Assembly: GCA_037137775.1 (NCBI GenBank)
Contig: JBAXJQ010000003.1
Coordinates: forward strand, 920 to 64,919
Direction of reading: 5' to 3'
Origin: Candidatus Falkowbacteria bacterium
GTDB lineage: Bacteria; Patescibacteriota; Patescibacteriia; Patescibacteriales; GWE2-39-37
DNA length: 64,000 nucleotides
This document shows positions 9,146 to 48,721 of the stretch, piece by piece (position 1 is the first letter of the stretch; each line of letters begins with the position of its first letter). Under the pieces are notes generated by a model. That model made no database searches. It saw only the letters and a program-made list of their open reading frames with translations, and was not told the DNA's origin. Position numbers and translations under genes: made by a program.

Positions 9146-9670
9146 TTATTTTGTTACAGTAGTATTTCTCTCAACTTGTGCATCTTCAGCTCTCTTTTGT
9201 GCTGCAGCCGCTGCGTCCTTAGCTCTTTTTCTGGATTCTGTAATTGAAGTTGAAGGGTTTAATGATCCTTCTTTTTGGCCAGCAACAGGATAAGGTTTTG
9301 GTTTATCTTTTGTAGTGTCGGATTTATATTGACTCCAGTTATAATTTTTATTTAGATAAAATTCTGCAAGCGGTTTGTATATTTGATAAATTTGCCATGA
9401 CAAATAGCAAATTGCAATAGTCAATATTGCAGAAGATAGAGCAATTTTTTTGTTAGCAAGGTCAGAGTTTCCACTTGGCAATGATTTTTCTTTTGCAGAC
9501 TCCTTTATTTTAAGTACGCTGCCAACAATCATAAGCATGACTCCAATCAACAACACTGGCACTAAAATTATATATAGGCCGCTTAAAGCGTACGCTAGAG
9601 AAAAAAAATAACTAAATAATACTACAGGCAGAGCTAGGCATAAACCTATTATTTGTTTTTTGTTTAACAT
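9146..9670 (-). CDS. hypothetical membrane protein (3 predicted TM helices, basic C-terminal tail)
   Basis: Hydrophobic segments in the translation. No recognisable family. Confidence 0.5.
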   Translation of the reverse strand: MLNKKQIIGLCLALPVVLFSYFFSLAYALSGLYIILVPVLLIGVMLMIVGSVLKIKESAKEKSLPSGNSDLANKKIALSSAILTIAICYLSWQIYQIYKPLAEFYLNKNYNWSQYKSDTTKDKPKPYPVAGQKEGSLNPSTSITESRKRAKDAAAAAQKRAEDAQVERNTTVTK

Positions 9671-9919
9671 AATGTTTTAAAATTATTTTATTATAATATT
9701 TTTTTGATATTGAGATATTCGACTCGTGCATTTTGCCAAAAAAATTATAAAGTGTATTAAGGAAATTTCTGGGTATTTCGCACAACTCGTTGATTTACGA
9801 AATGTATTCGTATATCATACGGATTTTGTATGTTATACAAAGTCTTGCAAGTTAATTTATAACTTTAGTATACCAAATGGTTGTTAAAATACAACGTTTA
9901 AAGCGAATATTGGGTAAAC

Positions 9920-9958
9920 TTGACAGTATCATTAAATATGATATGTTGTATATACAAC
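9920..9958 (+). promoter_or_regulatory. putative promoter plus palindromic operator of the Rrf2/Fe-S operon
   Basis: TTGACA at 9920-9925. A perfect 14-bp palindrome, GTTGTATATACAAC, at 9945-9958 overlaps the -10/TSS region, 17 nt upstream of the Rrf2 ATG. Confidence 0.45.
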
Positions 9959-9974
9959 CAATTTAGTTGGATAT

Positions 9975-46097: not shown

Positions 46098-47867
46098 CTA
46101 TTCTTCATCCTCAACAAATTGTAAATCATGTAGTTTACGATAAGTAGGACTGGTAATGATAAGTTCTGAATGCTTGCCAATAGCCTCGATGCCGCCTTTA
46201 GCAAAAACCAAAATCATGTCTGCGTGAATAACAGTAGACAGTCGGTGGGCGATAATGAATGAAGTGCGGTTTTTTATTAAGGCGTCCGTTGCTTTGGTTA
46301 TTAGGCGCTCACTTTCTGTGTCCAAATGACTTGTTGCTTCGTCTAAAATTAATATTCTTGGATCGCGTAAAACAGCTCGGGCAATGCCGATTCGTTGACG
46401 TTCACCACCTGAGAGTTTTATGCCGCGTTCGCCTACAACTGTCTGATAGCCATTTTCTAATTTAAGAATAAAGTCATGTGCTAGGGCTGTCTTGGCAGCC
46501 CCAGCAATTAGTTTACTTGAAATTTTGGTCTGTCCGTACGCGATATTTTCTGCAATGGTGCGAGAAAAAAGATCAACTTCTTGAGGTACAACTGCAATTT
46601 GTTTACGTAGGCTTTCTTGGGTGGCATCACGAATATCGACATTATCAATAAAGATGCCGCCTTTTTGTGGATCATAGGAACGGAGAAGTAAGTTGATAAA
46701 TGTAGTTTTGCCGCTACCAGATCGTCCAACTAGAGCACAAGTGGTTCCTGCCGGCACCATAACATTGATATGTTTAAGCGCGTATTGATTATCGCCTCGA
46801 TATGAAAAAGATACATTTTTAAATTCTACCCCAGTTTTTAATGGGAGTAGTTTTATGGCATTCGGTTTGTCCATAATATGAACCGACTCGTCAAAAATGG
46901 ATAATAACCGTTCAACTCGAGTGAGGTTGCGTCTAATGCGAGTAAACAAGGCTCCTAGGTTTGAAAGTGGTTGGTAGGCCATACTTTGTAAGGTAATATA
47001 CAAAACAAATTGACCAATAGTAGCAGTACCGTTCATTACAAAATATGCACTTAGGGTTAAGACCGCTACACGACCAATGGCTGATATGATAGTTTGAATG
47101 TTTTCTACCCTCTCCCAGAGCCGTTCCGCGCCGTATTAAATTTCTCGAGCATTAATCATCAAGCGTTGATGATTTTTGGTTTCAATTTCTTCTTGTGAAA
47201 ACTTTTTAACGGTTAATACATTGCCCGCTACATCATAAAGCTCCTTGGAGATTGTTTCAAAAGCATCGTTTGATTGTTGCTCGGTTTGATATATTTTATT
47301 GGCAATGTGATGAGTGGCCAAGAGATAAATCGGAAAGGGGATGAGCACGGCAAGTGCCACCCAGACATTTTCATACAAGAGGGCAATAAAGGCGCCAAAA
47401 AATATAATGAGAGGTGGTATAATCGCTTGACCGATTAAATCGAAGATAATGGTATAAAAAGACACTCCGCCACGTTCAATTCGGCCGATTATCTGTCCGC
47501 TAGAGGCACTATGATGAAATAGAGAGTGGAGTTGGAGATATTTTTCAAAAGCCTTACTACGTAAATCATCTTCAACCTTGGTCACCATTACAAAGAGGTG
47601 GTAGTTGTAGTTAGAGTGGAGCATACTACTAATTACTGACAAACCAAGTATGCCCAGGGCACAGTAAGACAAGGTTTGCCAAGGCAAGACTCCGGGGTGG
47701 CTAATAAATTTAGTTAGAGTATCGATAAGCGTGCGTGAAACAAACGGCACAAGAATGCTGGCAAACTGAGAGATTGTGATAAGGACAAGTAAAAAAACAA
47801 TCGTTTTTTTACGATGTTTTAGATATAACAAGACGCGTAAAAGAGTTGAAGGTTGTTTGTTGGTCAT
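46098..47867 (-). pseudogene. ABC exporter (fused TMD-NBD, MsbA/type I exporter-like) interrupted by one in-frame TAA
   Basis: ORFs 47136-47867 (TMD part) and 46098-47036 (TMD end plus NBD, with GRSGSGKTT, LSGGERQR and ILILDEATS) are in the same frame. The 99 nt between them contain no stop. The only interruption is TAA at 47136-47138, giving 589 sense codons in total. Confidence 0.75.
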
Positions 47868-48052: not shown

Positions 48053-48082
48053 TTGTAAAGTTAGAAAATTTGCCTTTATAAT
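48053..48082 (+). promoter_or_regulatory. candidate promoter of the plus-strand structured RNA
   Basis: TTGTAA (48053-48058), 18-nt spacer, TATAAT (48077-48082). Confidence 0.45.
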
Positions 48083-48089
48083 TTTTTCA

Positions 48090-48245
48090 TTTTATTGGCT
48101 CGGGGATAGGGATTTACCCCTACGCTACCGCTTCGGGGCATAAACTCCCGCCCGCCTGACGTTAGTCGGGCAGGTCTCATCCCATTCTCTAGCACGGTAA
48201 TATAAAACAACACCACGCTTTCGCTTAGGTGTTGTTTTATATTTT
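48090..48245 (+). ncRNA. candidate structured small RNA of unknown class
   Basis: GC-rich island in AT-rich DNA. Closing helix 48098-48113 / 48179-48193 (14 of 15 pairs, 2 of them G-U). Hairpins 48134-48150 and 48154-48171. All 4 wobble pairs are G-U only on the plus strand. Promoter upstream and terminator downstream. Confidence 0.45.
48204..48238. terminator. bidirectional terminator hairpin shared by the sRNA candidate (+) and tRNA-Gln (-)
   Basis: 11-bp stem aaaacaacacc/ggtgttgtttt with U-rich tracts following it on both strands. Confidence 0.65.
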
Positions 48246-48246
48246 G

Positions 48247-48317
48247 CTCGGGGATAGGGATTCGAACCCCAATTGACGGGACCAAAACCCGCTGTCCTAC
48301 CATTAGACGATCCCCGA
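48247..48317 (-). tRNA. tRNA-Gln (anticodon UUG)
   Basis: Minus strand TCGGGGATCGTCTAATGGTAGGAC...TTTTGGT...TGGGGTTCGAATCCCTATCCCCGAG. Cloverleaf folded by hand. CCA not encoded. Confidence 0.9.
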
Positions 48318-48341: not shown

Positions 48342-48370
48342 AGAATACAATAGCTTTATTTTATTGTCAA
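48342..48370 (-). promoter_or_regulatory. promoter of tRNA-Gln
   Basis: The minus strand reads TTGACA (48370-48365), 17-nt spacer, TATTCT (48347-48342). Confidence 0.5.
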
Positions 48371-48591: not shown

Positions 48592-48721
48592 AGGATTAGT
48601 ATGTTTATGAAAGGGAAGCGCCGTCGACTAGTCGGCTCAAAGACGCGGAGTGATTGCGTCACCCTTCCTGCCTCTGACCCTGCGGGCAAAAGTAGGAAGG
48701 CATAGCCAGATTGTTAAGGTT
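48592..48721 (-). promoter_or_regulatory. GC-rich structured 5' leader (riboswitch-like or independent ncRNA), class unknown
   Basis: Hairpins GACGC-N9-GCGUC and GCCG...CGGC. The segment AGGAAGGG can pair either with the upstream CCUUCCU or with the downstream CCCUUUC, and these two pairings are mutually exclusive. Confidence 0.4.

Follow-up and report, generated by a model that had tools for sequence, protein, structure and literature searches.

Tycheposons are islands that integrate at transfer RNA (tRNA) genes, where full and partial tRNA copies flank the element and successive integrations push the older ones outward; partial tRNA copies are scattered through the island, and a minority of tycheposons use large serine recombinases (bioRxiv 10.1101/2020.12.28.424599). 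Serine integrases have attB sites in which the zinc-ribbon-domain motif is 5 bp nearer to the crossover than it is in attP (PMC3783163). The present analysis concerns a 148-bp segment (48098-48245) beside a tRNA-Gln(UUG) gene in a stretch of 64,000 nt from Candidatus Falkowbacteria, hereafter the window; all positions are window coordinates, and the tRNA strand is the minus strand. Judged by its repeats and by its relatives in other genomes, the segment is probably a gene-less miniature cassette that was site-specifically integrated at the 3' end of tRNA-Gln. An initial annotation had favoured a plus-strand small RNA (sRNA) and had named an attachment (att) site scar or a tRNA-derived miniature inverted-repeat element as alternatives. 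These alternatives came close, as the segment has the appearance of an insertion with a duplicated tRNA 3' end and imperfect inverted ends, but a small element would still be in place rather than the scar of an excised one.

Read in the direction of the tRNA gene, the locus consists of the following parts:

48247-48317, minus strand: tRNA-Gln(UUG) gene, called by ARAGORN and by the Rfam tRNA model (58.4 bits), with the putative insertion target (attB-like left half) at the 3' end.
48246-48262, minus strand: proximal copy of the 17-nt core, AATCCCTATCCCCGAGC in minus-strand reading, assigned as an exact repeat and by its place in the tRNA alignment.
48199-48243, either strand: terminator-type hairpin, a perfect 16-bp inverted repeat (48199-48214 / 48228-48243), 100% complementary and with A-/T-rich flanks.
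48174-48193, minus strand: GCTAGAGAATGGGATGAGAC, where the structured part begins on its left side; it repeats the tRNA 3' end in inverted, degenerate form and matches ..GGGGATTCGAAC of the long forms described below.
48115-48173, minus strand: GC-rich body of the short-form element, assigned by alignment and folds.
48098-48114, minus strand: distal copy of the 17-nt core, an attR-type repeat, assigned as an exact repeat.

The sequence GCTCGGGGATAGGGATT is present exactly twice in the window, at 48098-48114 and 48246-48262, in the same orientation. With up to three mismatches allowed, these remained the only two matches in 64 kb. The 17 of 17 identity reported by the initial annotation is exact, with 0.02 matches expected by chance. 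The proximal copy spans the end of the T-loop, the 3' strands of the T-stem and of the acceptor stem, G73 and the next base, while the distal copy is followed on the minus strand by CA, giving ...GAGCCA. The window unit is bounded, in other words, by a co-oriented direct repeat of the tRNA 3' end, and we interpret the two copies as a putative att-type duplication flanking an insertion. The minus-strand order would then be tRNA-Gln with its core, the hairpin of the element, the degenerate inverted tRNA end, the GC-rich body, the direct core copy and the original flank. Given its position and its presence in every unit, the element-borne hairpin may serve as a replacement terminator of tRNA-Gln. 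The 148-bp unit contains no open reading frame (ORF), and hence neither an integrase nor a recombinase gene; a second copy of the element was not found in the 64-kb window.

For comparison, a genome collection was scanned at one genome per species with the tRNA-Gln T-arm and 3' end as query, which gave 75 stretches with a tRNA-Gln 3' end, nearly all of them from Patescibacteria. A metagenome scan added 22 contigs and 30 units, and scans of viral contigs yielded nothing relevant. Loci collected from both sources carry L-numbers in the following. Pairs of empty and occupied sites with matching flanks, and with boundaries inside the repeat, were found for the family. In the empty sites L027 and L032 alike, tRNA-Gln is directly followed by CAACGTAGATTAAGCGAGG... 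(CAACGTAGATTAAGCGAGGTTAAAGC...). In the occupied site L018, 424 bp comprising two tandem units lie precisely inside the repeated tRNA end, after which the flank of L027 and L032 resumes for more than 60 nt; the outermost core of L018 has decayed to AATTCCTATCCTCGAGC, with two substitutions. Other pairs of empty and occupied sites are L056 versus L075, L031 or L059 versus L062 or L047, and L036 versus L085.

At least 17 other genomes of Patescibacteria species, and the 22 metagenome contigs, have units after tRNA-Gln on the tRNA strand. In 13-14 of the 75 stretches, the first 450 bp or so downstream of the tRNA contain a second and sometimes a third direct copy of the core on that strand; a covariance model of the family added four stretches whose further units are truncated by the end of the locus. 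The comparison with related tRNA-Gln downstream regions, as proposed by the initial annotation, showed that equivalent units recur in constant orientation relative to tRNA-Gln. Their order on the tRNA strand is also constant: an AT-rich perfect hairpin directly after the core, a leader, a GC-rich body and a perfect core. The hairpin is found at this place in every family member, and the members are bracketed by bidirectional terminator hairpins on both sides. The leader has 10-20 nt and ends in ..GGGGATTCGAAC or GGGATGAGAAC, an inverted copy of the T-loop and T-stem that is sometimes longer. Units measure 150-230 bp and occur singly or in arrays with cargo-gene cassettes, the cargo genes being co-oriented with the tRNA. 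L087, for example, consists of the tRNA and four units with genes between them (a PEP-utiliser domain, a small protein and an inositol monophosphatase), and L090 contains three units.

The repeat follows the tRNA where the latter varies. L006 and L007 carry the tRNA variant CCCTGTCCCC, and the distal copy shows the identical variant. These two are the closest relatives with long contigs (PyrG 87-88% identical), and both have a long-form unit at the site, which is missing from L008. A synteny comparison was uninformative at closer range, since contigs with identical PyrG are identical across the region and display no variation. The product of pyrG, a neighbour of the unit, has the sequence of a protein that NCBI annotates as Candidatus Falkowbacteria, without any difference. 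The nearest PyrG relatives belong to Falkowbacteria or other Patescibacteria, and at 82-88% identity their neighbourhoods are rearranged.

On sequence and layout, the window copy is a short-form member of this family. Positions 48098-48193 match the family model on the minus strand with 26.3 bits (E = 1.7e-5 in a search space of 624 kb). The sequences closest to it are L037 (94% over 49 nt) and L028, which share the layout of hairpin, leader, body and core. The assignment of 48174-48193 as the degenerate inverted copy, which the initial annotation had already surmised for the 3' arm, was borne out by alignment with L037, L028 and L012, by the family listings and by the pairing with 48098-48113. 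The window body has an extra 28-nt hairpin (48147-48173) that is absent from L037 and L028. The short form was found after tRNA-Gln(CUG) in L028, after a cargo gene about 0.8 kb from tRNA-Gln(CUG) in L037 and after tRNA-Gln(UUG) in the window, so that one element is seen in different contexts. In the window, the copy is probably an ordinary, inert short-form insertion that either lost the conserved three-way-junction core of the long form or never had it.

Three further observations were made in the collected loci. One unit, with an identical or near-identical hairpin, is present twice per array in L020 (both copies) and in L090 (7811-7982 and 8598-8769), which suggests a recent duplication or the repeated integration of one element. 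In L095 (about 2700-2795), a partial 3' fragment resembling a tRNA, GGTCGTCGGTTCGAATCCGACCCCGGGAGC, stands before a unit, and no tRNA was called at this fragment. L061 (1845-2138) carries a GIY-YIG nuclease ORF and a mere unit remnant between two cores.

Large serine recombinases (domains Resolvase, Recombinase and Zn_ribbon_recom) are encoded at the same site in eight loci. In L014, L027, L030, L036 and L048, the gene borders on the 3' end of tRNA-Gln or overlaps it, the ORF running into the tRNA on the opposite strand. In L085 and L099 the gene adjoins a unit at its distal core, and in L088 one is situated further along the array. C-terminal remnants of recombinases adjoin tRNA-Gln in at least eight further loci. 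In six loci (L014, L027, L030, L036, L048 and L088) the recombinase at tRNA-Gln is accompanied by a rolling-circle replication protein (Rep; PF23343, G2P type), as in the following example, located directly at the tRNA-Gln 3' end:

L030, 1898-3547, minus strand: large serine recombinase gene.
L030, 4031-4870, minus strand: rolling-circle Rep gene.

No unit-like structure was detected inside the recombinase-Rep elements, even with search filters off. As a separate observation, the recombinase gene is split by an insertion of about 320 nt in L036 (~1692-2014), L099 (~1501-1823) and L088 (~9637-9959) relative to the uninterrupted gene of L085, the two tblastn pieces overlapping at residues 146-157; the insertion may be an intron or another small insertion.

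Most cargo cassettes downstream of tRNA-Gln end in a 27-mer, GTTCCAAyyrTATCCCArnCnCSGAGC, which was found in 32 copies (L028, L029, L075, L078 and L085-L103; for example L085 3423-3449 and L087 4796-4822) and is followed each time by an A-rich hairpin. The 27-mer equals the tRNA end GTTCGAA|TCCCTATCCCCGAGC (TCCC..GAGC) with 5 bp added between the two blocks. Related cassette ends read GTTCTAA-N5-TCCCTCCAGGCGAGC. In all 32 copies, the 27-mer differs from the tRNA end by the 5-bp attB/attP spacing of serine integrases; the structured units, taken as duplex DNA, do not show this spacing. By analogy, the tRNA end and the 27-mer fit an attB/attP relation with a putative crossover at the GAGC that ends the tRNA, or beside it. 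Every left unit boundary likewise ends in GAGC, which suggests, as far as boundaries can indicate it, that the crossover takes place there. The tRNA 3' end would accordingly act as an attB-type half-site with the exchange at or next to the terminal ..GAGC. The units may owe their movement to large serine recombinases acting in trans, the elements of which occupy the tRNA-Gln site themselves, a proposal for and against which we see about equal weight.

This arrangement resembles the attB/attP model of the A118/LI integrase, in which a half-site consists of a distal 7-9-bp motif and a proximal motif with a 5-bp shift between the two types of site (PMC3783163). At tRNA-Gln, GTTCGAA|TCCC..GAGC stands against GTTCCAA+5 bp+TCCC..GAGC, and recombinase genes adjoin the site. 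In contrast to the model, the distal motif is missing from the structured units, taken as duplexes, at both spacings, and tandem arrays would need the re-use of an attL-like site; crossover, right half-sites and activity are putative here.

Several points weigh against integration of the window unit by such a recombinase. For the flank of the window unit, a relative with an empty site was not found, and because of this we infer the insertion at the window locus from the family. No excised circle or attP junction was observed among the data. The link to recombinases is one of co-location (at least eight loci), and in the window itself tblastn with both recombinase types found no recombinase, nor was one evident among the ORFs within about 6 kb; the whole 64 kb was not profile-scanned. 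The right end of the unit has no GTTCSAA motif at attP or attB spacing in duplex DNA, which leaves its recognition by a serine recombinase unexplained. To our knowledge, canonical serine integrases do not re-use attL, as the tandem arrays would require. The window copy, moreover, scores low against the long-form model, and the short-form set comprises four sequences. As the unit has no ORF and no recombinase was found in the window, it would be non-autonomous at best. A crude motif screen for tyrosine recombinases gave no convincing motif in 149 + 279 ORFs near the arrays.

The composition of the window segment was as described in the initial annotation: its GC content is 59%, compared to 21-39% in neighbouring 100-nt intergenic windows. 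The minimum-energy fold of the plus strand also reproduced the predicted closing helix (48098-48113 / 48179-48193, 14 pairs), the two inner hairpins and the four G-U pairs, and the hairpin, announced as an 11-bp terminator, proved stronger than claimed. The fold of the GC-rich part alone is modest, with z = -2.7 and 3 of 200 shuffles folding as well. The closing helix is the pairing of the imperfect inverted ends of the unit, and the plus-strand G-U pairs are the A-C mismatches of the degenerate inverted repeat on the tRNA strand. The wobble pairs had been taken to favour a plus-strand RNA; in terms of energy this argument fails because the minus strand folds equally well (-40.4 versus -40.2 kcal/mol).

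According to the initial annotation, an sRNA of about 150 nt would be transcribed on the plus strand from a TTGTAA-18-TATAAT promoter to the hairpin, and its 5' arm would pair with tRNA-Gln, or the precursor of this tRNA, at the 3' end. In its favour are a promoter-like match 16 nt upstream and a bidirectional hairpin downstream, a stable fold of the plus strand whose closing helix includes G-U pairs, and the perfect 17-nt complementarity to the tRNA 3' end. Promoters were scanned by counting matches to the consensus (of 12) in the AT-rich 2.5-kb region and in shuffles thereof, with two results of interest:

48053-48082, plus strand: promoter-like match TTGTAA-18-TATAAT (10/12), in the flank, outside the inserted unit and probably not part of the feature.
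48342-48370, minus strand: promoter-like site for tRNA-Gln, TTGACA-17-TATTCT (10/12), a consensus match only.

The first of these exists as claimed, but it is weak evidence, because the region holds 12 such matches versus 6.1 +/- 2.9 in shuffles. It lies outside the inserted unit and has no counterpart in other members, including L028 and L037. In other members, what comes after the distal core is either a terminator hairpin or the native flank, and across the relatives no promoter and terminator were found that are conserved along with the RNA. The hairpin, for its part, stands immediately 3' of tRNA-Gln and belongs to the inserted unit in every member, and other members have terminator hairpins on both sides. 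The orientation is fixed relative to tRNA-Gln, and the tRNA strand is the better-folding strand of the family (33 of 34 long forms, by 9.4 kcal/mol on average). The att duplication already accounts for the complementarity. The Rfam search suggested by the initial annotation returned no match for the element at gathering thresholds in the window, and neither the window (E up to 10) nor the long forms (E up to 5 in L087) gave a credible sub-threshold match, tRNAs and hairpin noise apart. A plus-strand sRNA is thus very unlikely. Even less credit can be given to a decayed tandem duplicate of tRNA-Gln, a pseudogene without any mobility. A weak local alignment to the tRNA extends beyond the 17-mer (GGGGT-AAATCCC versus GGGGTTCGAATCCC), but only the 3' 17-25 nt are tRNA-like, the 5' end is an inverted and not a direct copy, and no tRNA was called there. 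The architecture is moreover found again in dozens of genomes, where both empty and occupied sites exist and the non-tRNA core is conserved.

Two related candidates were rejected. ARAGORN and the Rfam tRNA model (RF00005) called only 48247-48317 a tRNA in this region and did not call the element, which together with the family comparisons contradicts a tRNA pseudogene or an unusual tRNA on either strand. An intron in the T-loop was dismissed as the unit lacks a tRNA 5' half; the Patescibacteria tRNA introns described in the paper that we found are group I introns at position 35/36 of tRNA-Asn and tRNA-Asp and are not relevant here.

Covariation, which the initial annotation had proposed to test, was measured on the long form (about 170 nt; 34 distinct sequences). 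It was strong in two helices of that form, whereas the short form in the window lacks the conserved core in question. The long form folds into a three-way junction of P1, P2 and P3 with conserved purine-rich junctions. P1 is the closing helix, formed by 5' GGGGAUUCG with 3' CG(A/G)-bulge-AAUCCCU, P2 is a long arm with internal hairpins, and P3 is a hairpin. In P2 and P3, 88% of the cells are paired compared to 33-43% with slid partners, 109 double-change cells were observed versus 34 +/- 4.5 in shuffles, and the covariation score is 0.43 versus 0.07-0.09 for slid partners; the alignment was fitted to the model and is biased toward structure, but the slid controls are nonetheless far lower. The long-form fold is under selection. 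Its tRNA strand, which is 61% purine, folds better than the complement in 33 of 34 sequences with RNA parameters and in 34 of 34 with DNA parameters. The strand call rests on these fold energies and on the architecture, because the wobble counts (39 G-U versus 28 A-C cells) are not significantly asymmetric. The 5' leader forms no conserved acceptor-like stem with the 3' tail, helix 1 being only 59% paired, and the element is therefore not tRNA-like beyond its ends.

What the fold is for can be read in two ways, which concern the structured body and not the insertion and are compatible with a miniature cassette integrated at tRNA-Gln. In one, the body would be functional cargo, a non-coding RNA of the tRNA strand transcribed by read-through or from a weak internal promoter, with a 3' end mimicking the T-stem and acceptor 3' strand and with the cassette as its vehicle. 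The strong covariation of the two long-form helices, the recurrent GGAA (GNRA-type) hairpin loops, the purine-rich conserved junctions, the better-folding sense strand, the high GC content in an AT-rich genome and the terminator-type hairpin after each unit agree with such an RNA. Yet a strong bidirectional terminator hairpin also stands directly before each unit and leaves 10-20 nt without a recognisable promoter; on the tRNA strand before the units, only T-rich -10-like strings in the hairpin tails were seen, which are not convincing. The leader and 3' tail form no acceptor-like stem in most members, the element is not called a tRNA by either method, the excess of G-U over A-C is not significant, and the short forms, including the window copy, do without the conserved core. 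We regard an RNA cargo as unlikely. In the other reading, to which we assign a similarly low probability, the body would be folded single-stranded DNA, either a recombination site comparable to integron attC and the folded attP of CTX phage, or a single-strand replication origin, in which case the unit would be a mini rolling-circle replicon and use the Rep proteins of the hotspot. The better fold of the tRNA strand with DNA parameters, stems conserved in structure but not in sequence, GCGAAGC-type mini-hairpin motifs, the insulation of the units from transcription on both sides and the Rep genes found with a recombinase at tRNA-Gln in six loci are in line with this. In addition, the fold puts GGGGATTCG beside CGA-AATCCCT and re-creates a duplex like the T-loop and T-stem DNA of the target. 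On the other hand, serine recombinases are known to act on duplex sites, the recombinase-Rep elements contain no unit-like structure, and the single-stranded intermediates are without direct evidence.

A wider proposal, which we put forward as speculative and rather improbable, is that the core of about 150 nt, with its closing helix from tRNA T-arm sequence and its two covarying arms, represents a new class of structured nucleic acid that helps actively to insert itself site-specifically. In one version it would serve for attachment or replication, as a folded single-stranded site mimicking the target duplex of tRNA-Gln; in another it would be a tRNA-strand RNA that steers a recombinase to the tRNA gene by its free 3' tail, equal to the acceptor 3' strand. 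Combined with the 27-nt ends of the cassettes, it would then constitute an integron-like serine-recombinase cassette system on tRNA-Gln.

Compared to the systems described so far, the units share with tycheposons and other elements integrating at tRNA 3' ends the site-specific use of a tRNA gene, with a full and a partial tRNA copy at the flanks. They differ in that they are 150-230 bp long and gene-less, have a conserved covarying core and alternate with single-gene cassettes ending in the 27-nt site; the hosts are Patescibacteria, the target is tRNA-Gln, and the recombinase is located outside the unit. Like integron cassettes, they form co-oriented, mostly single-gene or gene-less cassettes at one site, with end stems conserved in structure more than in sequence, as in attC. 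However, a crude motif screen of 279 neighbouring ORFs found no IntI beside the array, RYYYAAC / GTTRRRY core sites were absent from the unit ends on inspection, the repeat is tRNA-derived and 17-27 nt long, and the junction sequence is strongly conserved. With miniature transposable elements of the inverted-repeat type (MITEs) they have in common that they are small and non-coding, possess imperfect terminal inverted repeats and were presumably moved in trans. Unlike MITEs, they have one fixed target and no dispersed copies, their 17-nt repeat is identical to the tRNA end rather than a short target-site duplication, and they bring their own terminator hairpin. The initial annotation had named many dispersed copies as the mark of a MITE; in the 64-kb window there is a single copy, and the others lie in arrays anchored at tRNA-Gln. 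The miniature size, the lack of a gene, the conserved covarying core and the alternation with single-gene cassettes set the family apart. A full-text literature search returned no description of this family, the tycheposon preprint being the nearest analogue, and the family is apparently undescribed.

The family is more interesting than the window copy itself. The genomes of Patescibacteria are tiny, and their ways of acquiring genes are poorly known; tRNA-Gln appears to be a recurrent insertion hotspot in them, occupied by single-gene cassettes, by serine-recombinase and rolling-circle-Rep elements and by an abundant non-coding unit with a covarying fold and no Rfam match. Should the fold play a part in recombination or in replication, it would count as a new structured element, of DNA or of RNA, and tools might be made of the recombinases and their sites. 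For annotation, the family accounts for GC-rich "orphan RNA-like" segments beside tRNA-Gln and calls for caution against antisense-sRNA predictions there.

Two minor observations were made in the vicinity of the window unit. A second GC-rich patch (48600-48710, 55% GC) between a 52-aa ORF and pyrG has no Rfam match, and its folds (z = -1.0 and -1.5) are no better than those of shuffles. Just beyond the inserted unit, an ABC exporter (46098-47867, minus strand) is divided between two ORFs 100 nt apart, one for the membrane domain (47136-47867) and one for the ATPase (46098-47036), and is either a frameshifted pseudogene or a split gene.

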